From contig NW_024704742.1 in the NCBI RefSeq assembly GCF_018977255.1, positions 137,270,001 through 137,334,000 of the forward strand: a stretch of DNA of 64,000 bases. Reading direction: 5' to 3'. This stretch comes from Callorhinchus milii. Taxonomy: Eukaryota. The notes beneath the pieces were generated by a model. That model saw only the letters and a program-made list of their open reading frames with translations, made no database searches and had not been told where the DNA came from. Position 1 is the stretch's first letter, and each line of letters opens with the position of its first letter. The position numbers and the translations under genes are program-made. This document shows, one piece after another, positions 5,746 through 45,938 of this stretch.

Positions 5746-5830
5746 TGCCATCAAACATTCAGCGGTTCCAGGAAAAGTATTTCATCTTTGCGTTGACTCC
5801 CCAACAAGTCAAAGCGATCTGCATTTCCAG
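5746..5830 (+). CDS. PIAS2: PIAS2 exon 3
   Basis: ttcag|..PSNIQRFQEKYFIFALTPQQVKAICIS..|gtaaga; phases fit neighbours. Confidence 0.95.
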
Positions 5831-6363
5831 GTAAGAGACTCTCACTATTGGAATGTAAATCGGAGAGAAGGTCTTCTGTCTTTCTCTGGCTTGAGTTCAA
5901 AGCCCCGACGTAGGCCTTGAACCAGGTGCCTTCTGACTCAAAAGGCAAGTAAGATACCAACTGAGCCAGACTAACACAAAGAGAACTGAACAGCTATCTG
6001 GCAAAGAATAGTATGACATAGAGGGAAAGCAGTTATTTTTTCCATCACATGAGGAAGCCCATTACTACGGTATCCAAACCAGAGTTCCTCACACGTTGTG
6101 CAGGTGGGATTGCCAGCTACGGTACTCTCTTCTCTATCTGAAGGTGTCGCAGGAACTTTAACATCCACTGGACCAAAAAACCAAAGCAAGTGCTGCATTG
6201 TTGGAAGTGCTGTCCTTCAGTTGAGATGTTAAACTGAGGTCCAGTTTGCCTGTTCAGGTGGTTTTTAAAGATCCTGTGATACTTTTCAAAAGAGAAGGGA
6301 GTTTAACCTGTTGTCCTGGCTAACAGTCCCCCAAATAAAATTGGTCACTCGTTTCTCCCATCT

Positions 6364-6512
6364 CTGGTGGTGTTGAACGCCTGCAGTTCCCGGTGTGGGT
6401 GTGTGTGTCTCTGTCGTACACTCTGCTGTGGCTGCTGAGAGAGAACGTGCAGCTCATGGGCCCCTGAGCCCTGACTAGTGGGCCTGGGGGATATAAATTG
6501 CTGCAAACAATG
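6364..6512 (+). ncRNA. 5'-truncated third copy of the same snoRNA in PIAS2 intron 3 (possibly a pseudogene)
   Basis: Near-identical to 28793-28941; lacks the 5' strand of the first hairpin base; H box, 3' hairpin and ACA (6507-6509) intact. Confidence 0.6.
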
Positions 6513-7054
6513 CATTGTACCAGTCTGGTCACCCTGCGGGGGGTGGGGGGGAGAAGAGAGATCCTTCAGTAAGCGCAGTGGGACCCTCTTATGTCTGATA
6601 GCTTGAGCCGTGTGTACGTGGATGCACTTGAGAGTCAGCCAGGTTCAGATAGTAGGACTCTCGCCTCTGGTCCAGATGATTGTGGGCTCAATCCTTCCAT
6701 CTTCTCCCACTCCAGAATGATGCTCCATTGTAGTAGTGGGAGGACCACCTCTGCATTACTGGAGGCTCCATCCTTCAGATGACGTGACAACAACAGAAAA
6801 TTGCCTTTCATGTCTGTAGGACAGTCAAGGGTTTGCACCCGATCTGGGAATTGGAGTCAAGACGGGTGGGAGGATGGCCGAAGGTGCGGTCAAAGAGGAA
6901 GGTCTTGTGACAGATCTTGAAGGAGGCAAGGGATTGGCAAGATAGAGGGACTCTGGGATGGAGTTCCAGAAGGTGGGACAGAAAGGCTGACAGCTGTTCA
7001 AGTGATTACTGCCTATGTGGTTTGAGTAATTTGATACACTCCGTTCTTTTCCAG

Positions 7055-7105
7055 GGACTTCCTGCCGGGTGGCAGACGAGACTACATTGTGCAGGTGCAG
7101 CTAAG
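7055..7105 (+). CDS. PIAS2: PIAS2 exon 4
   Basis: ccag|DFLPGGRRDYIVQVQL|gtgagc. Confidence 0.95.
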
Positions 7106-8554
7106 GTGAGCAGAGACCCTTTAGTCTATTCTTGTGCCCACCTGGAGCCCGTTATATAGCACACTTACTGCGGGACTGAGACTCCAGCATAGTGGGGGAG
7201 AGGAGAGCCTGTCCCTGGGATGAGATGGTAAACCTGACTGCCTGTCCTTTAGGTGGACAGTAAAGATCCCACAACACTCACGTTTGGAAGTGAGTTTTGC
7301 TGGGGTGTCCTGGCCAACAATCCTCCAGATAAAATTCATGGGTGTATGTAGGTCTCTGATGGTGCAAATGGCTGTCAAGTTATATAGTCAATTCACTTTA
7401 CAGTATATTTTCTGAAGCGCTTTGAGATGTCCTGAAGACATGATAAGGCACTTGCTACATCAAGTGCAAGTATTATTAAGTTTGGCTGCAATCATAGAAT
7501 TATACAGCACAGAAGGAGGCCATTCAGCCCATTGTGTCTGTGCCGGCTCTTTGAAAAGAGCTTCCAAATCAATCCCACTCCCCCGCTGTCTCCCCATAGC
7601 CCTGCAAGCTTGTCCTCACCAAATAATTATTTACTTCTCTCTTAAAAGTTGTTATCGAATCAGCTTCCACCACCCTTCCAGGCAATGCATTCCAGATCCC
7701 AGCAATGCGCTATAATAATAATGATATTATAACTCGCAATAAGTCACTACATTTGACAATACTTACCTGTGAGGTATTGCAATGTGTTAAGACACAAAAT
7801 AAAGTGTTTCATTACATCCTGAGATGTCTTCATTCCATCCATATTACGTTGTCAGGTGAATCTCATGTTATGAAATGTTTTAATGCTTTGCTTTTATGTG
7901 AAGGGCGCTTGTATGTAAGTTGTTAAACTCTTCGAGATGTTTCCTTAATGTGAAAGCTGCTGTACTGTCTAAACTGAAGTGTTTATGGCTAAATTAGCCT
8001 TTATAATCTCCTACTTACATGTTCCTGCAGAAGTAATTTGTTCAACAACATTACGAACTTACATAGCACCTTTTCCATAGTCTCAAAGTGTTTTACATAG
8101 ACAGAATTCCTGGCTGGGAGAGAGATAAGGCTGTGGGGATAGGGAAGAGGTAGCTGAAAACTCAGTCAAAGGTACTTGGGTAGGGAGCAAAGGGTGTCAG
8201 AAATGAGTTCAGGAGCTGGGTGCAAAGTGGCTGAAAGCTCATTCGCTGATGGTGGGGCAGTAGGGGGTCATGAAGTCAGCCAGTGTGAAGGAGATCACGG
8301 AAGAACTGTAGGTCAAGGCCATGGAGATATTTGAAGAACTTTTATTATTAATAATAATATTCCTTGCATTTGATATAGCGCCTTATCACGTCTTCAAGAC
8401 GTCTCAAAGGGCTTCACATAATATACTGTAAAGTGTGGTGACTATGTTTTGGCAGCCAATTGTGATTTGATTTATTCTTGTTTTTTGTTATTTATTATGT
8501 GATTTGGAGAGGAACGAGACTTTATCTAATGAAGATGGAAACTTTTGGTTTCAG

Positions 8555-8645
8555 GTTCTGTCTGGCGGAGACCAGTTGTCCACAGGAAGATAACTACCCC
8601 AACAACTTGTGTATAAAAGTGAACGGGAAACTTTATCCATTGCCA
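8555..8645 (+). CDS. PIAS2: PIAS2 exon 5
   Basis: tcag|FCLAETSCPQEDNYPNNLCIKVNGKLYPLP|gtaagt. Confidence 0.95.
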
Positions 8646-9460
8646 GTAAGTTACTTGTTCCTATTAAATATGAGGTGGGAGTAAGGGAGGAGATGTGAGG
8701 CCAGTGTGATCGCTGGAGGAATCGATCGTGGAGTGATATTTATCACATTGAATGAGTTGGAGGTAGGCCGAATCACTCTGCTCCTGTTAACGCCTTTCAA
8801 GTTGGGAGGACGTCCTGAGGAGCTGGACAGTCAGGGATTTGGGCCTGAGCTGGGGGTCAGGATTGGAGAGTAGGAGGGTGGCCGATGGCTCAGTTGAAGA
8901 GGAGAGTTTTGAAGGAGGCAAGCGAGGGAGGAGGCGAAGGGAATGCGGGATGAAATTCCATAGGGTGGGGGCAGAAAGACTGAAGGCCCGACCGCCGATG
9001 ATGGGGCGGGCTGGACGGGAGACGTGGAGCAGGCCAGAATCTACTGAGTGAAGGGAGCGGACAGGTTGGTATGCAACAGGCTGTAAACCAAAGCACTACC
9101 GGATAGGGTGGTTCCATCTGGACAAACAGCAGGAAAGCTTGCCAGACAGAGAGATCAATGGCAGGCTGTGTGGTTTTAGCTGGTTAGACCTCAGCAGTTA
9201 ACCCCAACGCACACTCTGGGCTTCCTAAGCCTTGGCTCTTACCAACCTGTGCCTAACATTCTCCGGAATTGTAAACGGGATGGGTCCCTCCAGGGAGAGA
9301 GTGTGCATTCCATTCCAGATACAGGGGAATATCCATGTGTAGTTGGCAGACATATGTGGAACTCTGTTTGGTTTGGATCCTCTTGAGCATGGTGATGGGT
9401 TTCCACGTGTGTCAGGCTCCCGGCTGACCAACGGCTGACTTTGCTGATCTCCTTGTCCAG

Positions 9461-9595
9461 GGCTTCACGCCACCACTTAAGAACGGTGTTGAACAGAAGC
9501 GACCCGGGCGGCCGCTGAACATCACATCTCAGGTCCGTCTTTCCTCAGCTGTCCCCAACCAGATCTCTGTGTCCTGGGCCCCGGAAATGGGCAGA
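9461..9595 (+). CDS. PIAS2: PIAS2 exon 6 (PINIT-motif region, PLNIT)
   Basis: ccag|GFTPPLKNGVEQKRPGRPLNITSQVRLSSAVPNQISVSWAPEMGR|gtaagt. Confidence 0.95.
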
Positions 9596-10246
9596 GTAAG
9601 TGCTACAACCTCATTCTTCTTCCCCTCTGGGAAAGACTGTAGCCCCCTGGGGCTGGCTCCTCTTACTGTGTGAAGAAACATTTACAAATGATGCAGAATT
9701 AGTATTTAAAAGCTTATTTTTGGCACTAGGCAGATGTCACCTTGTGGTCGTTGTGTGAAATGTCAGCATTTAATGTTATCAAATTGTTCTTCCTCTTTGT
9801 AATTCTCCTTCACTCTCCTACATCTGACTTTTTCTTTAGCTGTCTCTCTGACTCTCTCTCTCTCTCTTAACAATTTCTTTCTCTTTCAGTCCTCTCTCAG
9901 TCCCTAATTGTATGTCTTTCTATGACTTTTTCTGCCCATCTCTATGCCATAAAGTATACATAGCACTTACCTTTGTGCTCCCAATAGAACCATAACTGAT
10001 AAGCTTAGCACACGAACACAACAAGGTTCACAATGCGTGGTACAGGCAGTCTCAAATAAACGATGAACAACACCTGATCTGCTAACAAACAGTTAATTCA
10101 GCTTTTTAATTTCAAATTCAGAGTAAAATCATTTTTCGATCCATTGACATAGATTTTCCTCAGGAAAGGGGGGAATTGTCGGTGACTTTTTCTTAAAAAA
10201 GAAGCCGATTTTAAGGTCCTTGTTTGTGGTCTCTCCCCTCCCTTAG

Positions 10247-10352
10247 AATTACTCGGTCTCCGTGTACCTGGTGAAGCAGCTGACGTCGGCCGTGCTACTC
10301 CAGAGGCTGCGGAACAAGGGGATCAGGAACCCCGACCACTCCAGAGCCCTGA
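10247..10352 (+). CDS. PIAS2: PIAS2 exon 7
   Basis: ttag|NYSVSVYLVKQLTSAVLLQRLRNKGIRNPDHSRAL|gtgagt. Confidence 0.95.
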
Positions 10353-10875
10353 GTGAGTGTGGCCCTGAGAGAGAGAGAGAGAGAGAGAGAGAAGCCAGCG
10401 CTTAATACCACCGGAACTTGGGGCCCCCCTTCCCACCGGCACTTGGCCATTGTGTCAGCCAAAGATAGTGGGCAAAGATATTCCTGCACTTTCTAATGGG
10501 TTTGAGCGCTGCGCTAGGGTGTGTAGTGCAGGCAATATTGGGGAGCACTGTATTGTCTTTCACATGACATTAAACTGGGGGTTAAAGATTCCATGATACT
10601 GTTGGAAAAGGGAAAGGAGTTTCTCCAGGTGCCCTGGGAAACAGTCTGGGATTAATAGGTCATTCACCTTTGAGACGTGATAAGGCACTATATCACATGC
10701 AAAGCTTATTACCTCATAGCTATTTTTGTTTAAAAAAAAGACTGAGTTTTCTTGTGAAGCGCTTTGACACACATCGATGTGCTTAAAAAGGAAGGATTCC
10801 GGTTGTAAAAGTACTATATATAAATGTAATTTATTTCTGTGCTCACGGTCCTCCGTTTGCGTTCTGTTCTTTCAG

Positions 10876-10949
10876 TTAAAGAGAAGCTGACGGCTGATCC
10901 CGACAGTGAGATTGCTACCACCAGCCTGCGGGTGTCCCTCATGTGCCCT
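10876..10949 (+). CDS. PIAS2: PIAS2 exon 8
   Basis: tcag|KEKLTADPDSEIATTSLRVSLMCP|gtaagt. Confidence 0.95.
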
Positions 10950-11099
10950 GTAAGTTTCAGTGTCCATTCCTCACTGGTCGCTCACTGAGTCCTGGCAACA
11001 AGCTGCTAGTCTCGGAGCTTCTGATGCCCTAACATGAACCATTAAAAATATATCTCGCAGCCAGTGGGGCTGAGCCTAGGCGGCAGGGTGGGGTTTTTT

Positions 11100-11825
11100 C
11101 CTTGTCTATATGCTCCCTCTGGACAATGTCATCCGCAGACACGGGGTAAATTTTCACATGTTTGCCGATGATACACAAATCGACTTTGCCTCCTCCAGTA
11201 CCAACTCCAGGTCCCCGATTTTCTGTCGGCTTGTCTGGCAGACATCAAGGCCTGGATGGTGCAAACTTCCTGCAGCTGAATGTGGACAAGACAGAAGCCA
11301 TACTCCTTGGCTCCTGTCAATGTCTTCACTCCTGCGGATCTCAGACTCACCAAACCAGTGCGCAACCTAGGCATCCGGTTTGACCCCCAGCTGTTCTTTC
11401 TCCCCCACATCCGGTTCCTGACCAGGACCGCCTTCTTCCACCTCCGCCACATTGCCCATCTCCAACTGTATCTTACCCCAAATACAGCCAAAACCCTTGT
11501 GCATGCGTTTGTCACCTTCCACTTGGATTACTCCAACGCACTCCTCGCCTGTCTCCCAGCTCCATCATTCACAAGATCCAGCTCATTCTGCCGCCCGCAC
11601 ACTGACCCGGACCAGACTCCGGATCATTGCAAGTTTTTTTTTGCCTCCTTCATGGCACATTCTAAGACTCTCCCCTTTAACCACGCCTTCAGTCAACCTC
11701 CTACCCCACCTTTCATGCTCTCCACCCCTCATGATCCCAACCTCTGGATCCCAAATCCTGACTGTCCAACGCCTTGGGAAATCCTTCTGACATGAAAGGC
11801 ACTGTGTAAATATCATTTGTTGTTG
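11100..11825 (+). mobile_element. Decayed L2-type LINE 3' fragment
   Basis: FHMFADDTQ, FLQLNVDKTE, LVHAFVTFHLDYSNALL; (TTG)n tail. Similar fragments at ~17640-19135, 27815-28318, 42560-43310, 59260-60115. Confidence 0.85.
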
Positions 11826-11969
11826 ATGAGCCAGACATGTTGAAAGAATCCTGTGGGAAGTTGCGAGATGGATTAAGGGTCAGGTCCTGCCTGAAACCTT
11901 TGCTACGTTACTGTAAAAAGATGTTGGAAAGTTTTGTTCTGTTGACTATCTCCTCTATCCCTGGTGAAG

Positions 11970-12130
11970 CTGGGGAAGATGCGGCTGACAGTGCCGTGTC
12001 GAGCTGTGACCTGCACGCACCTGCAGTGCTTCGATGCCGCTCTCTACCTGCAGATGAATGAAAAGAAGCCCACGTGGATCTGCCCGGTGTGTGACAAGAA
12101 GGCCACGTACGAAAGTTTAATAATAGACGG
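11970..12130 (+). CDS. PIAS2: PIAS2 exon 9 (SP-RING/zf-MIZ)
   Basis: gaag|[53 protein letters not shown]|gtgagt. Confidence 0.96.
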
Positions 12131-13568
12131 GTGAGTCGGCGCAACAGTGAAACCTTTGTAGGGAGTCCTGTAACTCAGTGATTCGAGCACTCGCCCCGCA
12201 AGCCAGAGGACCCAGGTTTGATTCCTGGGCAGGGCAAAACCATAGGCAAGTTTCCTTACACCACACACCCCTGTTTACCGGCAGTAAGTCGGAACCCGCT
12301 TGTTAGTACGTTGGCGGATCACTTTCCCCCCAAAATTAAATAAATACGTTTTGGTCACTCAATCCACGACTGTTTGTCGGGCACTGCTGTGTGCAATTGG
12401 CTGCTGAGTTTCGCCCACAAAATATACAGTCAATTCACTTTACAATACATCCCGTGAAGGGCTTTGAGACATCTCTCCGACATGATAAGGCGCTAGCTAT
12501 ATCAAATGCAAGGATTATTGTGAGCACATTATGTGAGCATTAGTATGAGAGGTTTGGGTGTGGAAGCCCTTTTGGCCTGTGTGATTTCATCCTTCCAGAA
12601 AACACCGGTCAATACAGCATTGAGCTGTTCATTTAAAAAGGTCCCTCTCTCAACCATCCTCTTCCACATCTTATCACCCTCATTGCCAAGACCCTGTAAA
12701 ATAGTGGTTAGCATACTCGCCTCGTGAGCGAGAGGACCTGAGTTCAATTCCCGGGCGGTCGAACCCTTAGGCAAGTTTCCTTACTCCACGTGCTTCTGTT
12801 TAACCAAGCAGTAAGTAAGGACCCGGTTGTTAGTCGATTGGTAGATCTCTTTTCGGGGGGTCTAAATCCCTTATTTAAAAAAAACTTTGTCGGACACTGC
12901 TGTGTGCAATTGGCTGCCGCATTTCCTTTGTTTGTCTGTGCACATTAAAGTTCATGAGAGATTCCCCCGTGTGTTTATTTTTCTCCCTCTGAATTCTGAT
13001 TGGCAGCTCGCCCTATAAACATAATAATTCCTGTGTTTGATAGCTGTAATGTCGAGGTCTCAAAGTGCTTCACAACAATTACTGTGTTGTGTTGTGGAAG
13101 TTGAAGCAGCAGCCAATTTGTGCACAGCAAAGTCCCACAAACAGGAGATGAATGAGCAATATTATCTAGGGGATTGTAGTCCAGGGCATTGCACTCACCC
13201 TGGAGGGACATATCCTGCTTACCTAATTCGAGAAAGTATGAGGTGTAGTCAAATCACTTTACAGTATATTTTGTGAAGCGCTTTGAGACGTCTATAAGAC
13301 ATGCTAAGGAGCTATATATCAAATGCAAGGATTATTATTAAGGCCTGGGGACCCCAGAGTGTGCATTAAAACTGTATAGCTTGCCATTGATCTCATGGGC
13401 TGGCAAACACGATGCTGTAATGGAAAGACAATAAAGTGCGGATCCTGCATGGGTAAGATCAAACAAGCCTCTTCTGATCTTGTTTGAACAAGATAAGTTC
13501 TAAACAAATGTAAATTTGTTCTTGCTTTGGAGTAGCAAGTGGTTTTTGTCTGTGTTTTCCTCTCCCAG

Positions 13569-13705
13569 TCTATTCATGGAGATCCTGAATTCCTGCACGG
13601 ACGTGGATGAGATCAAATTCCTGGAGAATGGAGCCTGGTGTCCGATGAGACCCAAGAAGGAGTCGCTGAAACTATCCTCTCAGTGTCCCAAGGTGGAAAG
13701 CACAA
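13569..13705 (+). CDS. PIAS2: PIAS2 exon 10
   Basis: ccag|LFMEILNSCTDVDEIKFLENGAWCPMRPKKESLKLSSQCPKVEST|gtacgt. Confidence 0.92.
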
Positions 13706-15051
13706 GTACGTAGGTCCTGCCAACATCTATGTTGTTCACATCACTACTGCAGGCAGTGGATCAAGGAGCAGTAAAGGGTTCCTACAGCTCGAGTTGTGTT
13801 CAGTCCTCAGCTCTGCGCTGGCATGTTACTCTGCACAAGCCAGTCTCCTGCTCCCTCTTCTCCAGTTCCCCTTCTCATCCCCATCCCCTTTAAAACCCCT
13901 TCTCTTTGAGTACATATCTGAAGATTTATCCTTTTGAAATAGGTTAAGGAGAGATCCAATCGAGGTGTTCAAAATTATGAGTTTTAATAGAGTAGACAGG
14001 GAGAAACGTTTCCACTGGCGGGTGGGTCAGTAACCAGAGGATACAAATTTAAGATGATTGGCAAGAAACTAGAGAGGAGGAGAATTTTATTTTCACACAG
14101 CATTGTGACAGTCTGGAATGCACTACCTGAAAGGGTGGTGGAAACAGATTCCATGACAACTTTCAAAGGAAAATTAGATAGGTACTTGAAAAGGAAAAAT
14201 TTGCAGGGGTATGGGGAAAGAGCAGGGGAGTGGGACTGATTGGTTAGCTCTTCGAAAGATCCGGCAGAGGCACGATGGGCCGAATGGCCTCCTTCTTTGC
14301 CGTAATATGCCATGATTGCCTCAACTACGATTTGTGACAGTGATTTCCACATGCATCCCAATCTCGGCCCCTCACCCAAGTCGTTCTCCCTCTCCTCTCT
14401 GAGCTACTTGATAGCTGTGTTCTCTCTCACTGTTAATGTCCTAGTAAATTTATGCTGCACTCTCTCTCTCTCTCCAATGTTACAGTAGTACGGCAGTACT
14501 TCAAATGTGATCAGATTAAGAGGAAGCTAGATATACACATGAGAGAGAAGGGAACAGAAGAATATGGAATGGAGTAAGGAGTGAGTGGATACTCGTGAAG
14601 TATAAACACTGGAACGAGCTAGTCTGGCTGAACGGCCTGTTTCAGTGTTGTACATTTTATGTAAATCTATATGATTTATCCAAGGTTTTAGATAAATTTA
14701 CAACTTGCATTTATATGGAAGACCTTCCTCTTCGACCGGGCTTAGGGTCACCTCTTCCCTTCCCCCAGCTTGGCTCGTAGTCAGGCTCTGCCACTGTTAA
14801 GCTCTCCGAGACAGTGCCTCGTGTGAAGGGCACTTTATAAGTTGTTGAGTGCAAAATACTCACCTTGTTTGCCTATATAAACCAGGTTAGTATTCCCTGG
14901 TATTATACACATCCCAGCACCTTGGGACGTCCTCTCGACGTGAAAGCTGCTGTATGATAGAATTTTGTTGTTGGTGTTGTGCATACCATAGCGACGCGTG
15001 ACTGACTGACGTGTAAAGCGGGTGTTAAACGTGAGCTGTGTCTAACCCCAG

Positions 15052-15223
15052 CGAGTGTGAGCAAGAGCGGGGCAGCAACGCCAGCCAGCGAGTCCAGCAG
15101 CAGCAAAAAGGTGGAGGTCATCGACCTCACGCTGGACAGCTCGTCATCTGAGGAAGAGGAGGAGCCCCTCCCGAAGAAAAGGTGCCTGTACCCGTCTGAC
15201 ATTGAGGAAAACGCTGGCAAAGG
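15052..15223 (+). CDS. PIAS2: PIAS2 exon 11 (SUMO-interacting motif and acidic tract)
   Basis: ccag|..KKVEVIDLTLDSSSSEEEEEPLPKKRC..GK|gttagt. Confidence 0.92.
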
Positions 15224-16775
15224 GTTAGTCAAGGCGCGTCTTTCCCTCTTGTCTTCTAACACACACGTGAGTTGGTTTTGCCCAAATAACACTCGGTATT
15301 ATACACAAGGCTTTTGGTTACCTCCTGTTCAATTGAGTCATCTGTCTGGGTTCTGTCTGTCTTGGGATTCAATGATCACAGAGGCTAATGGGACGATCTC
15401 AAGGGCCTGGAATGCAAAAGCGGAAGCGATGCATCAGTTGTACAGAGCCTTGGCCGTATCCTATCTGCAGACCGCGTTCAGTTTTAGGCACCCGCACCTC
15501 AGGAAAGATATATCCTCTCTGGGGGGGGGGTTCACCAGAAAGACCCTAGGGATGAAAGGGTCAAATTGTGAGGACAGGTTACATAAACTTGGTCTGTATT
15601 CCCTGGAGTTCGGAAGGTTGAGGGCTGATCTGATTGAGGTGTTTAAAATCATAAAGGGATTCCATAGGGTAGCTGCAGAGAAACTATTTCCTCTGGTGGG
15701 GAATCCAGAACAAGGGGCAATTTGGCGTGGAACCACAGAAGCACTTTTTCAAGTAGTGGATATCTGGCCCCCTGTCTCCCTCTCCCAAAAGGCTGTGGAT
15801 GTTCGATAAATTGGAATTTTCAAGACTACGGTGAACAGATATCTGTTAGGTCAGGGTATCCAGGGATATGGGGCAAAGGTGGGTAAGTGCAGTTGAGGTT
15901 CAGATCAGCCATGATTTAATTGAATTTACTTAGATTGAATTTATAATTATTTTTGGTATCGAAGTCAATTTTGAGGGGTTCAGGAAGCGTGAGTCCCACC
16001 AGGTGTTCGGATCTATAGGGCTGGATTCGTCCGGATAGACGGTGGGCAACCACTTGTCTCTGGGTCAGAAGGTTGTAGATCCATTCACACGACCTGTGTT
16101 GGGTCTCACAGCCCAGGCTGACACTTCCTTGTTGGGAGGAGGGTAATATAATAATAATAATAATAATCCTTGCATTTGATAGAGCACCTTATATCTCGAG
16201 GCGTCTCAAAGCGCCTCACAGAATACATTGTAAAGTGAATTAACTGTATATTTTGTGAGTGAAACGCAGCAGCCAATTACACACAGCAGCGTCCCACAAA
16301 CAATGGTGGATTGAGTGACCAAATTATTATTTTTTTTGAAGGGATTTTTACCCCCGGAAAAGCGATCCGCCAATCGACTAACAACCATGTTCCTACTTAC
16401 TGCTAAGGTAAACAGAGGCGTGTTAACAGAGGGTGGGGAGAACATGGAGAGCCCAGGTTATGGAGGCAGCTGATGTGTGGAGTGATGTGACTTATATTAG
16501 AAAATAATGTTTGGGGATACAGTATACGAGTAATTTGAGACATGACATATAGTAAGTGTAGAATGGCTCGGAAGAACCAGGCAACTTTGGATCTAAGGTT
16601 CCCAAAGCTTCCCGCTGTGTTGTAGACTACACAGTCCATACAGAATTAATCGCTATCGACATCTCCATTACTTTAGCAAGCGACGGCCAGGATAGTAGAA
16701 GGTGGACTAGATGGACCTGGGTCTGTTGTTGTCCATCTGCCCTGTGATGCTATGTGTGTTTACTGTGCTCTGCAG

Positions 16776-16903
16776 GGTCCTCACGTACCAGCCCTCCTCG
16801 CTCCGGGTCCCCCCCGTGGACTCCAGTTTCCTGCCCCAGCTCTCGGACTACCCAGCTGCGTTCCACCACTCGACCATGTCCACACTACCCCCAGAGATAC
16901 ACA
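16776..16903 (+). CDS. PIAS2: PIAS2 exon 12
   Basis: gcag|VLTYQPSSLRVP..DYPAAFHH..PPEIH|gtaagc, phase-1 end. Confidence 0.92.
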
Positions 16904-17029: not shown

Positions 17030-17435
17030 ACAAATAGGAAGTTCTGCTGAACCTTTACAAGACACTGGTTAGGCCTCAGCTGGAGTATTGCGTCCAATTC
17101 TGGGCACCGCACTTTAGGAAGGATATCAAGGCCTTGGAGAGGATGCAGAGGAAATTTACCAGAATGGTACCAGAGATGAGGGACTTCAGTTATGTGGAGA
17201 GACTAGAGAAGCTGGGATTGTTCTCCTTAGAGCAGAGAAGGTTATGGGTAGTTTTAATAGAGGTGTTCAAAATTATGAGGGGTTTTGATAAGAGTGGAGA
17301 TAGGGAGAAACTGTTTCCATTGGCAGGTGGGTCAGTAACCAGGGGACATGGATTCAAGATAATTGGCCAGAGGGGAGATGAGGAGACATTTTTTTCCACA
17401 GTTAAGGCCTGAAAGAGTGGTGGAAACAGATTCAA
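17030..17435 (+). mobile_element. CR1 LINE 3' fragment cut at the left inversion breakpoint
   Basis: LVRPQLEYCVQFWAP/LEKLGLFSLEQRRL CR1 ORF2 end; stops at ..gaaacagattcaa. Confidence 0.85.
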
Positions 17436-17821
17436 ATTGTGGTCGCTGCTGTGCGCAATCGGTTACCACGTTCACCCACGAAAATACAGTCACTACACTT
17501 TACAGTAAATCCTGCGAAGCCCTTTTGAGACGTCCTCCCACCTACACCAAATGCAGGGATTGTTATTCTCCGCACGTGTGTGTACCTGTAATATGTATGT
17601 GCCTGTTTTTGTGTGTGTGAATAGTCGTGGTAGGAGGTGATGCCCTCTTTATCTCCCACCTTGACTTCTCCAATGCCCTTCTCACCGGTCTCACCAGCTT
17701 TGCCGCCCACACTGAACTCTGTACCCCTATCACCCCAGTCCTCGCCAGGCTCCACTTGCTCCCTATCACAGAACGGATCGAATTCAAGACCCTCTCACAC
17801 GTCTACAGATCCCTTCACGCC

Positions 17822-18835
17822 CTCTCTACCTCTCTAACCTACCTACTCCCCACGCCCTGGCACCTCTCTACCTCTCTAACCTGCCTACTCCCCACGCCCT
17901 GGCACCTCTCTACCTCTCTAACCTGCCTACTCCCCACGCCCTGGCACCTCTCTACCTCTCTAACCTGCCTACTCCCCACTCCCTGGCACCTCTCTACCTC
18001 TCTAACCTGCCTACTCCCCACGCCCTGGCACCTCTCTACCTCTCTAACCTGCCTACTCCCCACGCCTGGCACCTCTCTACCTCTCTAACCTGCCTACTCC
18101 CCACGCCCTGGCACCTCTCTACCTCTCTAACCTGCCTACTCCCACACCTGGCACCTCTCTACCTCTCTAACCTGCCTACTCCCCACGCCCTGGCACCTCT
18201 CTACCTCTCTAACCTGCCTACCCACACCCTGGCACCTCTCTACCTCTCTAACCTGCCTACTCCCCACGCCCTGGCACCTCTCTACCTCTCTAACCTGCCT
18301 ACTCCCCACGCCCTGGCACCTCCCTACCTCTCTAACCTGCCTACTCCCACGCCCTGGCACCTCCCTACCTCTCTAACCTGCCTACTCCCACGCCCTGGCA
18401 CCTCTCTACCTCTCTAACCTGCCTACTCCCCACGCCCTGGCACCTCTCTACCTCTCTAACCTGCCTACTCCCCATGCCCTGGCACCTCTCTACCTCTCTC
18501 ACCTGCCTACTCCCCACGCCCTGGCACCTCTCTACCTCTCTAACCTGCCTACTCCCCACGCCCTGGCACCTCTCTACCTCTCTAACCTGCCTACTCCCCA
18601 CGCCCTGGCACCTCTCTACCTCTCTAACCTGCCTACTCCCCACGCTCTGGCACCTCTCTACCTCTCTAACCTGCCTACTCCCCACACCCTGGCACCTCTC
18701 TACCTCTCTAACCTGCCTACTCCCCACGCCCTGGCACCTCCCTACCTCTCTAACCTGCCTACTCCCCACGCCCTGGCACCTCCCTACCTCTCTAACCTGC
18801 CTACTCCCCACGCCCTGGCACCTCTCTACCTCTCC
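17822..18835. repeat. 42-bp minisatellite (~24 units) within an L2 remnant
   Basis: cctctctacctctctaacctgcctactccccacgccctggca repeated. Confidence 0.95.
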
Positions 18836-19130
18836 GAATCTGCTTACTCCCCACTCCACTACCCGCTGCCTTTGCTTGACTGGCTCTGGCCTCCTGCTTC
18901 CTCGGTCCCCACCACTCCACCATCTGCGCCCGCGTTTTCAGCCACTACGCCCCAACATTCTCCCTCAATCCCTCCGCCTTGCCCCCCCCCCCCCCCACTC
19001 CTTCCCCAGCTTCAGGTCGCGTCTAAAGACCTTCCTCTTCGCCGGCGTTTTACAGTCGCCTCCTCCCCTCTCCATGTCAGGCCGTTAAGCGCTCGGAGAC
19101 GCTACCCCGTGTGAAGGGCGTGAATGCAAG

Positions 19131-21125
19131 TTGTTGTGTCTCTGTGTGCGGGTCTCTGTGCGGGTCTCTGTGTGGGTCTCTGTGTGGGTGTGTTTGTCTC
19201 TCTCTGGCTCTGTGTGTGTGTGTGTCTCTCTCTCTCTCTGTGACAGTGTGTGTCTATTTCTATGTCTGTGTGTGTCTATGCGTCTCTCTGGGTATAGGTG
19301 TGTGTCTTTCTCTGTGTGTCTCTCTGTGGGTGTGTGTGTGTGGGGGGGGGTCTCTGTGTGTGTGTGTGTGTGTGTCTGTCTGTCTCTGTCTGTGTGTTTG
19401 TCGGTGTGTGTCTGTGCATGTGTCTCTCTGTCTGTGTGTGGGTAGGTCTGTGTGTGTGTGTGTGTATCTGTCTCTCTGTGTGTTTCTCTCTGTGTCTGTG
19501 TGTGTGTGTCTGTGTGTGTGTCTCTCTGTGTCTGTGTGTGTGTGTCTGTGTGTGTGTGTGTGTCTGTCTCTCTGTGTCTGTGTGTGGGTAGGTCTGTGTG
19601 TGTGTGTGTCTCTCTGTGTTATTCTCTCTGTGTCTATGTGTGTGTGTGTGTGTGTGTGGGTAGGTCTGTGTGTGTGTGTGTATCTATCTCTCTGTGTCTG
19701 TCTCTCTGTGTCTGTGTGTGTGTGTCTGTGTGTGTGTGTGTCTGTGTGTGTGTCTCTCGCTGTGTCTGTGTGTGGGTAGGTCTGTGTGTGTGTGTGTCTC
19801 TCTGTGTTATTCTCTCTGTGTCTGTGTGTGTGTGTGTGTGTGTGTGGGTAGGTCTGTGTGTGTGTATGTCTCTCTGTGTCTGTGTGTGTGTGTGTGTGTC
19901 TCTCTGTGTGTGTCTCTCTGTGTCTGTGTGTGTGTGTGTTTCTCTCTGTGTCTGTGTGTGGGTAGGTCTGTGTGTGTGTGTGTGTGTGTGGGTGTGTGTG
20001 TGTGGGTCTGTGTGTGTGTGTCAGTATCTTACCTCTTGATGTAGTTTTTCCCGTTTAAGATGTGTTGGAGAAGTGTCACGATGGCAAAGGCAGAGATGAA
20101 GATAAAAAACAGGGATCGGTTCCCCAAAATGTCCTTTCCTGAGCGTTCAGAGTAACCCATTCCCTCTGTGTTTTCTGTGTCCCTGTCCCTGTGTGGGTGT
20201 GTGTGTCCCTGTGTGTGTGTGTGTCTATGTCCCTGTGTGTGTGTCTATGTCCCTGTGTGTGTGTGTGTCTATGTCCCTGTGTGTGTCTGTCCCTGTGTGA
20301 GTGTCTATGTCCCTGTGTGTGTGTCCCTGTGTGTGTGTGTCCCTGTGTGTGTCCCTGTGTGTGTGTCTATGTCCCTGTGTGTCTGTCCCTGTGTGTGTGT
20401 GTCCCTGTGTGTGTCCCTGTGTGTGTGTGTGTCCCTGTGTGTGTGTCCCTGTGTGTGTGTGTGTGTCTGTGTGTGTGTGTGGCTCTGAGCTGCTATTTAA
20501 TAGACACAGACGCATTGAGCCCTTTTCACGTCCGAGCCCTCCTCTCCTCTCCTTCCCTCCCCCCCTCTCCACCCCCTCTCCTTCCCTCCCTCCCCCTCCC
20601 TCTCCTTCCCTCCCCCTCTCCCCCCTCTCCTTCCCTCCCTCCACCCTCTCCCCCTCCCTCTCCTTCCCTCCCCCCTCCCCCCCTTCCCTCCCTCCCACCC
20701 ATTCCCCCCCTTCCCACCCATTCCCCCTCCCTCTCCCCCCCCCCCTCACTCACTCCTCCCCCTCCCTCTCCCTCTCTCCCTCTCCCCCCCTCCCCTCCCC
20801 CCTCTCCCCCCTTCCTCCTCCTCTCCCTCTTCCCCTCCTCCCCCCTCCCTCTCCCCTCCTCTCCCTCTTCCCTCCTCTCCCCCCCCTCCTCTCCCTCTTC
20901 CCCCCTCCTCCCCTCTCCCCCACTCCCCTCTCCCCCACTCCCCTCTCCCCCTCCTCTCCCTTTCCCCCTCTCCCCTCTCCCCCTCCTCCTCCTCTTCCTC
21001 TCCCCCCCCCTCTCCCCTCTCCCCCCCCTCACCCCTCTCCCCCCCTCACCCCTCTCCCCCCTTCCCACCCATTCCCCCCCCTCCTCTCCCCCTCCCCTCT
21101 CCCCCCCTCCCTCTCCCCCCCCCCC
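19131..21125. repeat. GT-rich simple repeats flanking ST8SIA5 exon 1, then a ~590-bp C/T-rich tract (20540-21125)
   Basis: Direct reading. Confidence 0.9.
20033..20160 (-). CDS. ST8SIA5: ST8SIA5 exon 1 (cytoplasmic tail and transmembrane signal anchor), minus strand inside the inversion
   Basis: [42 protein letters not shown] ag|gtaaga; compare human ..DLLGSRTLLFIFICAFALVTLLQQILYGRNYIKR; phase 2 joins exon 2. Confidence 0.93.
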
Positions 21126-21287
21126 TCTCCAGACTGCCTCCTGTGATATGCAACTCAGTGGGAAGCTGCAGGAAGACCCCCCACAGAGCATTCCTGTGTC
21201 ACAGAGACTGCAGCTCATAACCGCCTCTCTCCTCTCTCTGTGTCTCAGGTTCTCAGTGTCCGTTCAGCCCCAACAGCACCGCGATCT

Positions 21288-22080
21288 GGGGGGGGGGGGG
21301 GAGGTCTGTGCAGAGAGGGGGGGGTCTGTGCAGAGAGGGGGGGTCTGTGCACAGAGGGGGGGTCTGTGCAGAGAGGGGTGTCTGTGTAGAGAGGGGGGGG
21401 TCTGTGCACAGAGGGGGGGGTCTGTGCAGAGAGGGGGGGGTCTGTGTAGAGAGGGGGGGTCTGTGCACAGAGGGGGGGTCTGTGCACAGAGGGGGGGGGT
21501 CTGTGCAGAGAGGGGGGTCTGTGCACAGAGGGGGGGGTCTGTGCAGAGAGGGGGGGGGGGTCTGTGCAGAGAGGGGGGGGGGTCTGTGCACAGAGGGGGC
21601 GGGTCTGTGCACAGAGGGGGGGGTCTGTGCACAGAGGGGGGGGTCTGTGCACAGAGGGGGGGTCTGTGCAGAGAGGGGGGGGTCTGTGCACAGAGGGGGT
21701 GGGTCTGTGCACAGAGGGGTGGGTCTGTGCACAGAGGGGGGGTCTGTGCACAGAGGGGGGGGGTCTGTGCACAGAGGGGTGGGTCTGTGCACAGAGGGGG
21801 GGGTCTGTGCACAGAGGGGGGGGGTCTGTGCAGAGAGGGGGGAGTCTGTGCAGAGAGGGGGGGGGGAGTCTGTGCAGTGAGAGTGGGGTGGGGGGAAGAG
21901 TCTGTACAGAGAGTGTGGGTGGGGGGGCGGGGAGAGCCTTTACAGAGAGTGGGGGGGTCTGTACAGAGAGAGTGTGGGGGGGGGGGATGGGGAGAGTCTA
22001 TACATAGAGAGAGTGGGGGGGGGGAGAGTCTGTACAGAGAGTGGGGGGGGGGAGAGTCTGTACAGAGTGGGGTGGGGGGG
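21288..22080. repeat. ~20-bp G-run minisatellite with a palindromic core
   Basis: (G)n-tctgtgcacaga-(G)n units. Confidence 0.9.
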
Positions 22081-22389
22081 GGGTTAGAGAGAGACCAAAT
22101 GGATTGAGTGACCAAATTATTATTTTTTTGGAGGGATTATTAGTCCTGGAAAGCGATCGGTCTATCGACTGACGACCGGGTTCCCAATTACCGCTGTAGG
22201 TAAAAATAAAAAAAAAACACCCCCAATAATGCTAATTTTCCAGATATTAAATAAAAATGGGAATTAATGTGAATTGATTGCATTGTTGCAATAATTTTTA
22301 AACCTATTCTGATATTGTAATACACTACAATTATTATAATCCTAAATATAATTATATTATTGTGTTATGTGATATTGATAATATTGTTA

Positions 22390-22876
22390 CACCCACAAAC
22401 ACACTCTCATACACACCCACACACTCTCTCACACACACCCACACACACACATTCACATACACACCCACACACACTCTCACACACACCCACACACACACTC
22501 ACATACACACCCACACACTCTCACACACACACCCACACACCCACACACACTCTCACACACACCCACACTCACATACACACCCACACACACTCTCACACAC
22601 ACACCCACACACACCCACACACACTCTCACATACACACCCACACACTCACATACACACCCACACACACTCTCACACACACCCACACACACCCACACACAC
22701 TCTCACATACACACCCACACACTCACATACACACCCACACACTCACATACACACCCATTCTCACATACACACCCACAAACACTCACACATACACACCCAC
22801 AAACACTCACACATACACACCCACAAACACTCTCACACATACACACCCACAAACACTCACACACATACACACACAA
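22390..22876. repeat. CA-rich simple repeat
   Basis: Direct reading. Confidence 0.9.
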
Positions 22877-24902
22877 ACAGTCGTGGATTGAGTGGCCAAT
22901 TTATTATCATTTTATTTATTTATTTTTGATGAGATCATGACTCCCTCAATGCAATCCAATTGACTAACAACCTGGTTCTTACTTACTACTAGGTAAACGG
23001 AGGCATGAGGAGCAAGGAAACTTACCTGCCCAGGAACCCTGCCTACCCAGTTACTCCCTGCCCAGGAAACAAGCCGGGCTTGTGATGCGAGTGCTCGAAC
23101 CACTACACTTATAATAATAATAATAATAATCCTTGCATTTGATATAGCGCTTTTCACGTCTGGAGGACGTCCCAAAGCGCTTCACAGAACACACTGTAAA
23201 GTGAATTGACTGTATATTTGTGGGCGAACGCGGCAGCCAATTGCGCACAGCAATGTCCCACAAACAGTCGTAGGTTGAAAATGACCAATTTATTATTGTT
23301 TTTTGTTTTGGAGGGATTATTATTAGGCTCTGTGTGGAGTAAGGAAACTTGCCCGAGGTTTCGCCCTCTGCCTGGGATTGAACTCAGGTCTCTCACTTGC
23401 AAAGCGAGTGCTCTAACCACTGAGCTACAGGACTCCAGTTCAGGACTCCACATACATCCCACCTACACATGGAAATTCCAGAGACAGATTGTTGGAATGG
23501 GATTTGACACTAAATTACTCAAAGCCCAACCTCCCTTCCTCTGACATTCACCTCCTCTACATGCTCAGCTACCTCAGGGCTGCTGTGTTTCCCTCAGTCT
23601 CGATGGCCCCATCAGCAGTTGAGCGTTCAGCTATTTCACCGCTAACCTCTGCACCTTCTACCCTTCTGTCTCGCCCCCCTCACCTCTGTCTCGCACCCCC
23701 CTTCACCTCTCTGCCTTGCCCCCCCCACCCCTCTGTCTCACCCCCTGCCTTGCTCCCTCTCAACCCTCTGCCTCTTCAACCGTGCTTATGGTTACCTCCC
23801 CCTCCCCTTGCTCGGTGCCAGGCTCCGCCACTGTTAAGCGCTCCGAGACACTATCCCACATGAAGGATGCAATATAAGTTGCGGTTGTTGGATTCGATCT
23901 CACTGATTCCTTTATTCGGGGTCCGACCCCCCCCCCCCCCATCTCTGTGCCGCGCTCCGAGACATTTTATTCCACGTGGAGAGTGGAGGGTGTATAACAA
24001 CAGGACGGCGTTGTGGGTGCACAGTATGGATGGAAATAATCCTCAAGGATTTACCCTAATAGGCCCCTCCTGTGGCCAGTTACAGCACAGCTAAACCTCA
24101 CCAAGGTTCCAATCAAGGTCACGTCAGAAAAATATCTGACGCTTCCAACGCAGTGCTGGGGAGACCTCTGCATTGGTGGAGGTGTTGTCCTTTGGATCGG
24201 GTTATAAACCAAAGTCTTGTCCGCCTGTTCCGGTGGACCTTAAAGATCCCTCGGTGCTATGTGCAAAGAGTGGGGTGGTTTTCTCTGTGTCCCGCCCAAC
24301 AATCCTCCAGATAAAATTGTTTTTTCGCCTCACGGATGTTTGTGGGATAGTGGTGTTGTTGCTGGCAAAACTGGCTGTCACATTTTCCTGCAAAATTCAC
24401 ATAGGGTAACATTTCTGCAGTCCTGTAGCTCAGTGGTTAGTGCACTCGCCACTCGAGTGAGAGACCTGGGTTTGATTCCCGATAGGGCAAAATGTTGGGC
24501 AATTTTCCTTACTCCACACGACTCTATTTACTTAGCAGGAAGTAGGAACCCGGTTGTTAGTCGATTGGCTATCAATGGTGAGCTATACGGTTTTGACTCA
24601 TTAAAATCCAGCAGTTACCCCAATACACACTCTGGGGTCCCCATGCCTTTTGGCCCCTGCCAACCTGCGCCTAATACTGAGTGGAATTAGGTAAGCAGGA
24701 TACATACCTCCACATGGGGGGGGGGGGGAATGGGGGGAAGAGAGAAGTGTGCACTGCATTCCAGTCACGGGAATGTCCACATGTCGGTGGAATGCACGGA
24801 ACTCTCAGTTAGTAATAATCCTTGAATTTGATATAGCGCTCATCATGTCTTTGAGTCGTCTGAAAGTGTTTCATAGAAAACTGTATTTTGTGGGAGCCAA
24901 TT

Positions 24903-25443
24903 GGGTAGGGCATGGAAGGGTAAGACAGGGAGGGTAGGGCAGGGAAGGGCAGGGCAGGGAAGAGAAGGGTAGGGCAAGGCAGGGTAGGGCAGGGAGGGTA
25001 GGGTAGGGCAGGGAAGGGCTGGGCAGGGTAGGGCAGGGTAGAACAGGGCGGCAGGGCAGGGCAGGGTAGGGCAGGGCAGGGAAGGGTAGGGCAGGGAAGG
25101 AGGGCAGGGTAGGGTAGAGCAGGGCAGGGTAGAACAGGGCGGTAGGGCAGGGCAGGGCAGGGAAGGGAAGGGAAGGGTAGGGCAGGGAAGGGTAGGGCAG
25201 GGAAGGGTAGGGCAGGGCAGGGCTGGGCAGGGAAGGGCAAGGTAGGGCAGGGTAGCGTAGGGCAGGGTAGGGAGGGCAGGGTAGGGAGGGTAGGGTAGGG
25301 AGGGTAGGGTAGGGCAGCGCAGTATAGGGCACGGCAGGGCAGGGAAGGGCAGGCAGGGTAGGGAGGGTAGGGGAAGGTAGGGTAGGGCAGGGTAGGGGTA
25401 GGGAAGGACAGGGCAGTGTAGGGCAGGGCAGGTGGGGGAGGGG
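24903..25443. repeat. (GGGCA/GGGTA/GGGAA)n pentamer array
   Basis: Direct reading; abuts the CpG island. Confidence 0.9.
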
Positions 25444-25479
25444 TCAGACACACACTGACCACAAACCATCATGCAGCAC

Positions 25480-26115
25480 AGGGTGGGTGTGGGAGGGGTC
25501 ACGTGGGGAGCACGTTACGTTGACGCACGACGTCAAGGCGTCGTGGCCCAGGTCTCCCGCTCCGCAAAGCCGAGTGTCCGTGAGGGAGCGCGAGAGGAGG
25601 AGGACAGTGTCCCGGTTGTAATCGGGGAACATCCGCCCACATGGTCAGTGATAATCCCCGCCGACGGCCCGAGCGGGCAGCGGGGCGTCCCGTCCGCCAT
25701 CCCAGGCCGCCATTTGTGACCGATGATGCTTCGTTTTCGGGATAAACTTAACCGTCGGCGGTCGGGCGCGCGGATGGACGGACGGACGGCCGCTTCCCCG
25801 CGCGGTTCCCGGCCTCTCGCCGCCGCCGCCGCCGGAGGGGCGGGCGGGCGGTGACGACGCTGCGGCCGCTTCATCAGGAGATTGCGGTGCACCGCGCGGA
25901 AAGCTTTCGTGGTTCGGTTGCGGCGGCCCCGCGCGCGCAGGGGCGGGGAGGGGGTCGAGGTATCCAGCAATTGCCGGACCCCCCCTCCCTCAGGTCCCGC
26001 CCGCTTCCCCGCCGCTGATTGGCTGGCAGTGACGTCATTGATCACCGAGCCCCCCCTGCTTTGATTGGCTGCTCGGGGTGTCGATCAACCCCTCCGCCCC
26101 GCCCACTCAGTCTTT
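25480..26115. promoter_or_regulatory. CpG-island promoter
   Basis: Dense CpG; E-box CACGTG 25500, ATF/CRE-like sites 25521-25535, YY1 GCCGCCATTT 25706, reverse CCAAT 26018 and 26064, CRE TGACGTCA 26030, GC boxes 26094-26104, Inr-like TCAGTCT 26107. Confidence 0.8.
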
Positions 26116-27132
26116 TGTCCATTACATTACATTTCATTGTGATTTCCTTGTGATGGTAAATGGAATAATAGGGCCTTTGAGGTCTTGACACAGTGACTTG
26201 TTATTAGATTAAACCGCATCGCGTCCCGGGGCCGAAAACCCCGGGATACAATCGGAGCCACTTGCGAGACTCTCGAGGGCGGGGGGGAGTGGGGGGGAAA
26301 CTGTTCTGTTGCGTTCTTCTCCAAATATAATGCTGATAGTCCGCGCATTTGGTGTACCGCGTCTTCGAGGCGTCTCAACGCGCTTCGCAGAATAGACTGT
26401 GAAGTGAATTGACTGTATATTGGTGGGCGCGAGGCGGCCGCCAATTGCGCACAGCAGCGTCCGCCACACACGGTCGTGGATTGAGTGACCGAATTATTAT
26501 TGTTGCCTTCAACTACACAGTCACTGCACTTGACAGCGGTTGCCCGTGTAAGCGTTTGGGACGTTTGGGCATTTTATAGGTGCTGTATCGCGTCAGTTTG
26601 TGAATCTCAGCGCTGGTATGAATGAATCTCAGTGACGATCGATGCTTTGTGGATTTCTGGCAGGACATTGTTCAGGAGTCAGGGCCGCACACCATTGCTC
26701 AGACTTGAGACCTGCACTTGGAAAACTGCCTGAAGGATCCAGAGGAGGATCTCGCTCGCCTCCACGTCAAGGTACAAGTTAGTGAGACACGGCTGTCAGT
26801 GCAGTACACGGCACACGCCCATCGCCATTGTGAGGGTGTCTCTCCCCGTCAATAAGTCTTTCGGTAAGCGGGGGGTGGGGGGGGCAAACCAAAACTGACA
26901 GTGGTGTGACCCTATAAATAGTGCTGTGACCCTACAAAAGGTGGTGTGACCCTGAATACAGTGGTATCAGCCCACAAGCAGTGCTGTGAGCCCACAAGCA
27001 GTGCTGTGAGCCTATAAACAGTGCTGTGACCAGGTTAGCAATGTCAGGGTGGCAGTCAGTCAGGCGAGGCCTCAGTTTAACATCCCCAGGAAACCCATCA
27101 CTGAGCCCATGAGTGTCCAAACTAGAGGTTTG

Positions 27133-27291
27133 AGCGGAGCCGCTGGTGGGGTTGAACGCCTGCAGTTCCCGGTGTGGGTGTGTGTGTCTCCGTCGTACAC
27201 TCTGCTGTGGCTGCTGAGAGAGAACGTGCAGCTCATGGGCTCCTGAGCCCTGACTAGTGGGCCTGGGGGATATAAATTGCTGCAAACAATG
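27133..27291 (+). ncRNA. H/ACA snoRNA, SNORA5-like, copy 1
   Basis: Two hairpins, H box AGAGAA (27219-27224), ACA (27286-27288); 3' pocket UCAUGGG/AUA(U)AA complementary to 18S AAUUAU-Psi-C-CCCAUGA. Confidence 0.75.
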
Positions 27292-27411
27292 GATTGTACC
27301 AGTCTGGTCACCCTGCGGGTGGGGGGAGGGGGAGGGGATTCCATGTGGTGATAGTATTTCTAGCCGGTCGTCGGCTAAAGTTTAGTGGAAGGTTCACTGG
27401 GCTCAGTTGAT

Positions 27412-27450
<39 letters not shown>

Positions 27451-28782
27451 CTCTGGCTCGACTGGTTGTGTGTTGACTCCACTGTTTCTGTTAGTGACCT
27501 GTACAGTCACCTCGGCTCGGGTGGCCTCACAATGAGCACCAGAGAGCAGTCCAGTCGGACATCCATAACTCACGCTGCCCCCTGACACCACGCACAGCGG
27601 TGAAGGGCATATCATCAGTGTCTGGAGCTGCTTCACAGCTGTAACCTGTGGCTGGAATCTTCCCAGGTGGATGCGACCACTTTTGTTTCCTCCGCCCATC
27701 TCTTGGCTCTTGCCAACCTGCGCCTGATATTCTCCGGAACCAGGTAACCAGGTAACGACTGTGCATTCCATTCCAATAATCTATCTCTGGGATTTCCATG
27801 TATAGGTGGGATCCCGCACCAGGCTTCGTGACCACATCACTCCCACCCTCGCTCACCTCCACTGGCTCCCCATCCGCCAAAGGATTGAATTCAACATCCT
27901 CATCCTCACCTACAAGGCCATTCATGGCCTTGCTCCCTCCTACCTCTCCGACCTACTATCCCCCTATCTACCTGACCGTACCCTCCGTTCCTCTGGCTCT
28001 GGTCTGCTCCACATTCCCCGCCCCAACCGCCCGACCATCGGTGGCCTTCAGCCTCTCAGCCCCGAGGCTCTGGAACTCCATCCCCCAGTGCCTTCACCGC
28101 TTCCTCCCTTTCCACCTTCAAGGCCGGTCTCAAGACCTTTCTCTTTGACCGAGCCTTCAGCTCCCTCTCGACTCTCTACCCCTCCTCGCTCCCTCCCTTC
28201 CCTTCCCCTCCCTGATCCATCCCCCCTAGTAGTCCAATCCCTACCGTCCAGCGCCATTGGGCTCCTCCCGACGTGAAAGGCGCTCTATAAATGGAATCTT
28301 GTTGTTGTTGTTGTTGTTGATGCAGGGAATTCTCAGTTTGGTTTGGAGACTCTTAAACAACGGTGATGGGTTTCTGCATGTGTCAGGCACCCGGCTGACC
28401 AAAAAGAAAATTGTCTCTTCTCTTCCCACAGTGCCCGGAGCAGACGGTTGGAGGAATCTGCGTGCTTCAGCAGGAACATGGGCCTGTGTTTGCAGAGTCG
28501 GAGGTGGTTAGGATGCCCATCGCCATTGTGAGGGTGTCTCTCCCCGTCAATAAGTCTTTCGGTAAGCGGGGGGGTGGGGGGGGCAAACCAAAACTGGATC
28601 CCGCCTGACAGTGGTGTGTCCCTATAATCAGTGGTGTGACCCTACAAGCAGTGCTGTGAGCCTATAAGCAGTGCTGTGACCAGGTTAGCAATGTCAGGGT
28701 GGCAGTCAGTCAGGCGAGGCCTCAGTTTAACATCCCCAGGAAACCCATCACTGAGCCCATGAGTGTCCAAACTAGAGGTTTG

Positions 28783-28941
28783 AGCGGAGCCGCTGGTGGT
28801 GTTGAACGGCTGCAGTTCCCGGTGTGGGTGTGTGTGTCTCTGTCGTACACTCTGCTGTGGCTGCTGAGAGAGAACGTGCAGCTCATGGGCCCCTGAGCCC
28901 TGACTAGTGGGCCTGGGGGATATAAATTGCTGCAAACAATG
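28783..28941 (+). ncRNA. H/ACA snoRNA, SNORA5-like, copy 2
   Basis: Near-identical to copy 1 at offset 1650; H box 28869-28874, ACA 28936-28938; a U>C change keeps upper-stem pairing. Confidence 0.75.
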
Positions 28942-29479
28942 AATTGTACCAGTCTGGTCACCCTGCGGGTGGGGGGAGGGGATTCCATGTGAAGTGATAG
29001 TATTTCTAGCCGGTCGTCGGCTAAAGTTTAGTGGAAGGTTCACTGGGCTCAGTTGATAGCTCTCTCTCTCTCTCTCTCTCTCTCCCCCTCTGGCTCGACT
29101 GGTTGTGTGTTGACTCCACTGTTTCTGTTAGTGACCTGTACAGTCACCTCGGCTCGGGTGGCCTCACAATGAGCACCAGAGAGCAGTCCAGTCTGACATC
29201 CATAACTCACGCTGCCCCCTGACACCACGCACAGCGGTGAAGGGCATATAATAATAATAATAATAATAATCCTTGCATTTGATGTAGCGCTTTTCACGTC
29301 GGGAGGACGTCCCAAAGCGCTTCACAGAACACACAGTAAAGTGAATTGACTGTATATTTGTGGGCGAACGCGGCAGCCAATTGCGCACAGCAATGTCCCA
29401 CAAACAGTCGTAGATTGAAAATGACCAATTATTATTGTTTTTGGTTTTGGAGGATTATTATTAGGCTCTGTGTGGATAA

Positions 29480-29504
29480 NNNNNNNNNNNNNNNNNNNNN
29501 NNNN
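29480..29504. other. Assembly gap (25 N)
   Basis: Run of n; a single n also occurs at 55526. Confidence 0.99.

Positions 29505-45898: not shown

Positions 45899-45938
<40 letters not shown>

Follow-up and report, generated by a model that had tools for sequence, protein, structure and literature searches.

Gene content and strand order of the locus

We examined a window of 64,000 nucleotides from the elephant shark Callorhinchus milii (NCBI RefSeq assembly GCF_018977255.1, contig NW_024704742.1, positions 137,270,001 to 137,334,000 of the forward strand), which holds the gene for the E3 SUMO ligase PIAS2 and the gene for alpha-2,8-sialyltransferase 8E, ST8SIA5. PIAS2 coding exons were located with Pfam and tblastn at 2854..16903 on the plus strand; they cover SAP, PINIT, SP-RING and the SIM exon, and the exon at 16776-16903 ends in a phase-1 donor. 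The Pfam scan took in 325 of the 544 open frames, with low-complexity frames omitted. The first large PIAS2 exon is 100% identical to the Callorhinchus milii PIAS2 model P0001. The last two coding exons are found on the minus strand. The penultimate exon, 38 nt long (33677..33714), has intact AG/GT sites and a phase that fits the donor at 16903, and the coding part of the last exon (32401..32604) ends in DIISLD-stop, its 3' UTR continuing toward lower coordinates. This tail is conserved, since 91 of the 120 PIAS2 matches end in ISLD. ST8SIA5 is divided in the same manner: six coding exons lie on the plus strand at 45776..52307 (Pfam PF00777, tblastn; best match C. milii ST8SIA5, 98%), whereas the coding part of exon 1, from the ATG to a phase-2 donor, lies on the opposite, minus strand at 20033..20160. 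All 43 residues of exon 1 are identical to the same-species proteins P0121 and P0123 (NP_001279920.1). P0123 fails to match the exons at 47822-47968 and 50141-50311, both of which are matched by P0121, and its central part may derive from a paralogue.

The misplaced exons share a single block of 16,743 nt (17436..34178, minus strand), composed of a 12,044-nt arm, an assembly gap of 25 N (29480..29504) and a 4,674-nt arm. All three exons inside the block are on the minus strand, and the exon matches outside it, 11 for PIAS2 and 6 for ST8SIA5, are all on the plus strand. When the block was un-flipped, the 13 PIAS2 exon matches fell in order on one strand, with an intron of 996 nt after 16903, as did the 7 ST8SIA5 exon matches. 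The splice sites of the three flipped exons (two of PIAS2, one of ST8SIA5) are intact and their phases match, and the rejoined PIAS2 tail is identical to P0245 (XP_007910053.1) at 120 of 122 residues. Compared with the vertebrate pair of PIAS2 (beta form) and ST8SIA5, all coding exons are thus present and undamaged, and turning the block back gives them their expected order; the orientation of the 16.7-kb block is the sole difference. Un-flipping it restores two genes and, as described below, two repeats.

Other protein models from the same species carry the standard order. In P0001 (UniRef A0A4W3HKV3) and P0245, the flipped PIAS2 exons are spliced onto the rest of the gene. The tail of P0001 is encoded by the same DNA with the frame shifted after a G run, and it was therefore presumably read from a genome, which suggests that this genome had colinear PIAS2 exons. 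The RefSeq PIAS2 model P0241 (XP_042192046.1) ends at residue 400, at the end of the SP-RING exon 11970-12131, and the three exons that follow in the window (13570-16903) match the full-length models; its end at 12131 comes earlier than the inversion alone would predict. Past the donor at 16903, reading in the PIAS2 frame meets no stop for 35 codons of the intron (16904-17010), and this open frame is a possible alpha-like PIAS2 ending, as judged from the reading frame. The left breakpoint falls in the intron at which the mammalian alpha and beta forms of PIAS2 diverge (P0026, P0066 and P0090 compared with P0021), and an excerpt of PMC11094195 has the mammalian PIAS2-alpha form departing from the beta form at the corresponding intron. 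When short proteins that cross the PIAS2 exon joint were sought, none came from the same species, the matches being four teleost proteins, and a literature search for Callorhinchus together with ST8SIA5 and PIAS2 found no paper naming the locus.

We also aligned contigs from 4 of the 24 listed sequencing runs (X1, X2, X3 and X5) to positions 15000-17800. In X5, one contig of 335 nt connects 15222 with 16775 across a GT..AG joint; it departs from the window sequence exactly at the donor 16903, with 178 further letters. The GT..AG joint is missing from X1, X2 and X3, and we took X5 to be RNA by guess; no listed run is recorded as RNA. The exit at 16903 is consistent with a normally spliced PIAS2 mRNA and does not amount to proof. 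Among the contigs listed for these four runs, none bridges 17435/17437; the repeats fragment the contigs, whose listed pieces end at or before 17244 and begin again at 17496-17522.

Junctions and split repeats

The junction at 17435 marks the left boundary of a clean inversion of 16.7 kb that runs from 17436/7 to 34177/8. Read directly, the window shows ...gaaacagattcaa (...gattcaa) up to 17435, an a at 17436, and then ttgtggtcgc.... The sequence to the left is the 5' part of a split LINE 3' fragment (17030..17435, plus strand; HMM model positions 2-284), which we take to belong to the CR1 family, following its naming in a preliminary description of this DNA. The start at 17030 is also that of the preliminary description; our alignment begins at 17176. 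The CR1-like element resumes on the minus strand from 34178 with the 3' part of the same copy (34011..34178; model positions 285-444). The sequence to the right of the left junction (17435..17437) is the 3' part of a second split element, presumably a SINE by the same naming (17437..17567, plus strand; model positions 315-459), and the 5' part of this element is on the minus strand, running from about 34462 to the right junction at 34178/34179 (34178..34462; model positions 47-313).

When the halves were compared with other copies in the window, they fitted without loss or gain. Of the five intact CR1 copies in the window, two can be aligned across the cut, and both show zero gap or overlap. 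The SINE halves abut exactly in all six copies that align on both sides (e.g., 43613/43612, 41874/41873, 44847/44846 and 36053/36054), the other 9 of the 15 copies being uninformative. In profile HMMs built with the split copies excluded, the CR1 is divided at model positions 284|285 and the SINE at 313|315. Both new junctions are thus reciprocal, with no net loss or gain of sequence, as in a balanced inversion. As a chance control, we counted complementary halves on opposite strands within one repeat family, of which there were 22, 36 and 67 pairs at tolerances of 3, 6 and 12; when a reciprocal pair in two families was demanded, the HMM version of the control returned one pair, namely 17435/34178. 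Chance adjacency of repeat fragments is therefore ruled out.

A single base departs from an exact exchange. At the junction column, both CR1 copies have T, as do 16 of the 19 hits of the SINE junction motif, a few of these hits being non-SINE. The right joint has this T, and the left joint has A at 17436, which fits neither family. Because both families have T where 17436 has A, the cut lies at 17436/34178 or at 17437/34177. Among 441 cut pairs, the best were 17437/34177, 17438/34176 and 17436/34178, and length is conserved in all three. Neither junction carries an N. BLAST gave no match between the breakpoint regions 16900-17750 and 33850-34600, and of the 1,066 inverted pairs in 16900-34700, the 25 longest all lie away from the block ends. 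Repeat-mediated recombination is therefore ruled out for want of homologous inverted repeats at the breakpoints; so is an inversion by staggered breaks, since the halves abut and the flanks carry no inverted duplication. The F8 intron 1 and intron 22 inversions arise by recombination between inverted repeats. They resemble the present case in that a gene is split with exons on opposite strands, but the breakpoints here lie in an unrelated CR1 and SINE that share no homology.

The preliminary description had the CR1 stopping at 17435 with SINE sequence next, and both direct reading and the HMM agree, the SINE starting at 17437. It had also joined 17435 to the reverse complement from 34178 as one continuous CR1, a continuity upheld by the two informative copies, and had proposed that the flipped block be aligned to the CR1 consensus; on the CR1 HMM, the halves proved contiguous, without overlap or gap. 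Its joint, blunt to within 1 nt and free of homology, loss or N, was recovered by the alignments, the HMM and BLAST. The geometry of that account stands in full, but an N gap does exist inside the block, this gap and the two broken genes had escaped the description, and the base at 17436 belongs to neither repeat; likewise, its reciprocal blunt inversion holds as a description of the window, but whether such an inversion exists in the animal had been left unweighed.

Origin of the inverted order

The internal 25-N gap, the breaking of genes whose exons are intact and the colinear same-species models together make an artefact the more likely origin. The inversion is most likely not a real feature of the animal's genome, and we regard it as probably an error of assembly in which a long-read gap fill was pasted in reverse between two contig ends. 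The inversion, its ends and its internal gap are observed; we infer that 17435 and 34179 were formerly the ends of two contigs flanking a scaffold gap. A long-read gap filler would have extended each end, by 4.7 kb on the PIAS2 side and 12.0 kb on the ST8SIA5 side; the extensions would have failed to join, a 25-N spacer would have been placed between them, and the whole fill would have been written as its reverse complement by a strand-handling error. The true order would then lead from the PIAS2 exon 16776-16903 through the 996-nt intron with a whole CR1 to the last two PIAS2 exons, and onward through the gap to ST8SIA5 exon 1 and an intron with a whole SINE. The layout is that of a reversed fill, with 25 N inside the block, none at its ends, and arms of 12,044 and 4,674 nt that are of long-read size. 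One model fits the reciprocal blunt ends, the lack of N and of homology at the ends, the internal gap and the read-size arms.

The gap filler PBJelly writes exactly 25 N as a spacer in overfilled gaps. Excerpts of its description (English et al. 2012, PMC3504050) state that it extends both flanks, that an 'overfilled' gap is one in which the extensions do not meet, and that runs of at least 25 N count as gaps. The present block resembles such an overfilled gap in its unmet flank extensions, its read-limited arms and its residual N run, 25 N being the smallest gap of the tool. It differs in that a reverse-oriented fill is absent from the account in these excerpts, so that the reversal would be a separate error. 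Our literature searches turned up no description of reversed gap fills, by PBJelly or otherwise, and excerpts of PMC7757076, PMC7190621, PMC7111595 and PMC7081964 describe none. Excerpts of PMC8302630 and PMC12952989 report a published long-read assembly of the same species made with Falcon and HiRise and a final round of PBJelly; the passage of the PMC8302630 supplement names no polishing after that final round. The published assembly totals 991.5 Mb, with 3,865 contigs placed in 1,761 scaffolds, or about 1 gap per 470 kb (PMC8302630, in excerpt). At this density a random 16.7-kb block would hold a gap about 3.5% of the time, a figure that rests on the gap density of an assembly that may not be the one from which the window comes.

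Base-level errors were examined as well. The SINE beside the 25-N gap shows two 1-nt homopolymer losses relative to its sister copies, as would be expected of an unpolished extension tip. Across repeats in the whole block, 1-nt deletions number 21 in 2,982 aligned bases, against 57 in 10,218 outside it (7.0 and 5.6 per kb; p = 0.21), and the increase is not significant. Against an artefact, the A at 17436 is unlike an exact cut and flip of family-typical sequence, and under a reversed fill it would have to be an earlier substitution or a single-base error of the filling. The same-species ST8SIA5 model P0122, which is without exon 1, also speaks against an artefact, as do the early end of P0241 and the fact that predicted models can borrow transcript sequence.

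The foremost alternative, which we consider unlikely, is a real and young balanced inversion in the assembled animal, probably on one chromosome, formed by classical non-homologous end joining. Two double-strand breaks at least 17 kb apart would have been rejoined, one base being altered at the left joint, and a collapsed assembly would have chosen the inverted haplotype. Blunt joints, or joints with 0-2 nt of microhomology and small indels, are the usual signature of end joining. This signature is present here: the joints are reciprocal and blunt, at most 1 nt is shared (T being expected at both sites), one nucleotide is changed, and no repeat pair lies at the ends. End joining explains the A at 17436 directly, which mildly favours a real inversion. 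Two exactly reciprocal adjacencies would also seem beyond the reach of chance chimeric reads; both joints are free of N, and the intact flipped exons suit a recent event. However, end-joining inversions are a class defined by DNA that spans the junctions, and a real inversion predicts no gap inside the block. It would also have damaged two conserved genes at once, PIAS2 with its widely shared ISLD end among them, and the same-species models show that the standard gene order exists in the species.

Were such a 17-kb inversion nonetheless segregating, it would strike two genes, detaching the beta tail from PIAS2 and the first exon from ST8SIA5, and we give this no better than a minor chance. PIAS2 would be cut at the intron of mammalian alpha/beta divergence and end alpha-like, with 35 intron-derived residues. 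The promoter of ST8SIA5 would be reversed and drive antisense transcription into PIAS2. Fusion of PIAS2 to ST8SIA5 would not preserve the reading frame, because the donor is in phase 1 and the acceptor in phase 2. The result would be a naturally occurring allele that hits two genes in a single animal, of a known kind and of modest interest.

An in-silico flip of another origin, introduced by a proximity-ligation scaffolder or by a manual or scripted edit whose new gaps were later removed, is improbable. HiRise breaks and rejoins contigs (PMC7757076, in excerpt) and was used in the published assembly of the same species (PMC8302630 and PMC12952989, in excerpt). However, its joins carry gaps of 100 N according to the same excerpt of PMC7757076, and neither junction here has an N; false joins that had been filled should leave N or duplicated flanks, and both are absent. 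Least tenable of all is a fixed or common inversion, in which PIAS2 would end in the intron-derived tail and ST8SIA5 would be lost or under another promoter: the in-frame read-through of 35 codons after 16903 and the departure of mammalian PIAS2-alpha at the same intron (PMC11094195, in excerpt) would suit it, but speaking against it are the full-length models from the same species, the absence of decay in the flipped exons and the X5 contig, which leaves at 16903 as a spliced transcript would. Because the same-species models have the standard order and the X5 contig leaves the window at 16903, fixation in the species is very unlikely; an artefact and a private allele are the two readings that remain.

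If the inversion is an artefact, the finding is a correction and a warning, as the flip would make PIAS2 look truncated and ST8SIA5 headless. Studies of vertebrate gene evolution use the elephant shark as a standard outgroup. A reversed fill without N at its ends mimics a clean biological inversion, and its signature, a pair of reciprocal blunt ends enclosing a single 25-N run, could therefore be screened for in any assembly finished by gap filling with long reads.

Repeats and other features of the block and its surroundings

The 12-kb arm of the block has a G+C content of 56%, compared with 46-50% elsewhere. Around ST8SIA5 exon 1, about 5 kb (17821-22879) consist of tandem and simple repeats, comprising a 42-mer repeated 24.8 times, GT, C-rich sequence, a 20-mer repeated 28.4 times and CA. 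Such repeat-rich and G+C-rich DNA could have caused a contig break.

Just left of the 25-N gap, about 0.8 kb is present twice in direct orientation as a recent duplication (26817-27615 and 28515-29252), with 12 substitutions in 804 alignment columns and gaps that fall mostly in mini- and microsatellites. The duplication could be real, or it could be two haplotypes written consecutively. A 191-nt element is present in three copies that are 96-97% identical, one in a PIAS2 intron (6364-6554) and two inside the duplication (27143-27333 and 28793-28980). The block also contains three young SINEs that are 96-97% alike (23111-23367, 29251-29476 and 30742-30998). Two of them, at 23111 and 30998, are inverted relative to each other at a distance of 7.4 kb, and the third, at 29251, is cut by the gap.

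Elsewhere in the window, head-to-head SINE pieces at 49178-49538 were considered as a second inversion and rejected, as they have no reciprocal partner. Here the tail of a minus-strand SINE meets the head of a plus-strand SINE at 49297/49298, and these are probably two insertions. A single N is present at 55526, after a T run. All four runs (X1, X2, X3 and X5) have one extra T behind 15943, which is likely a base error or a private variant in the window.
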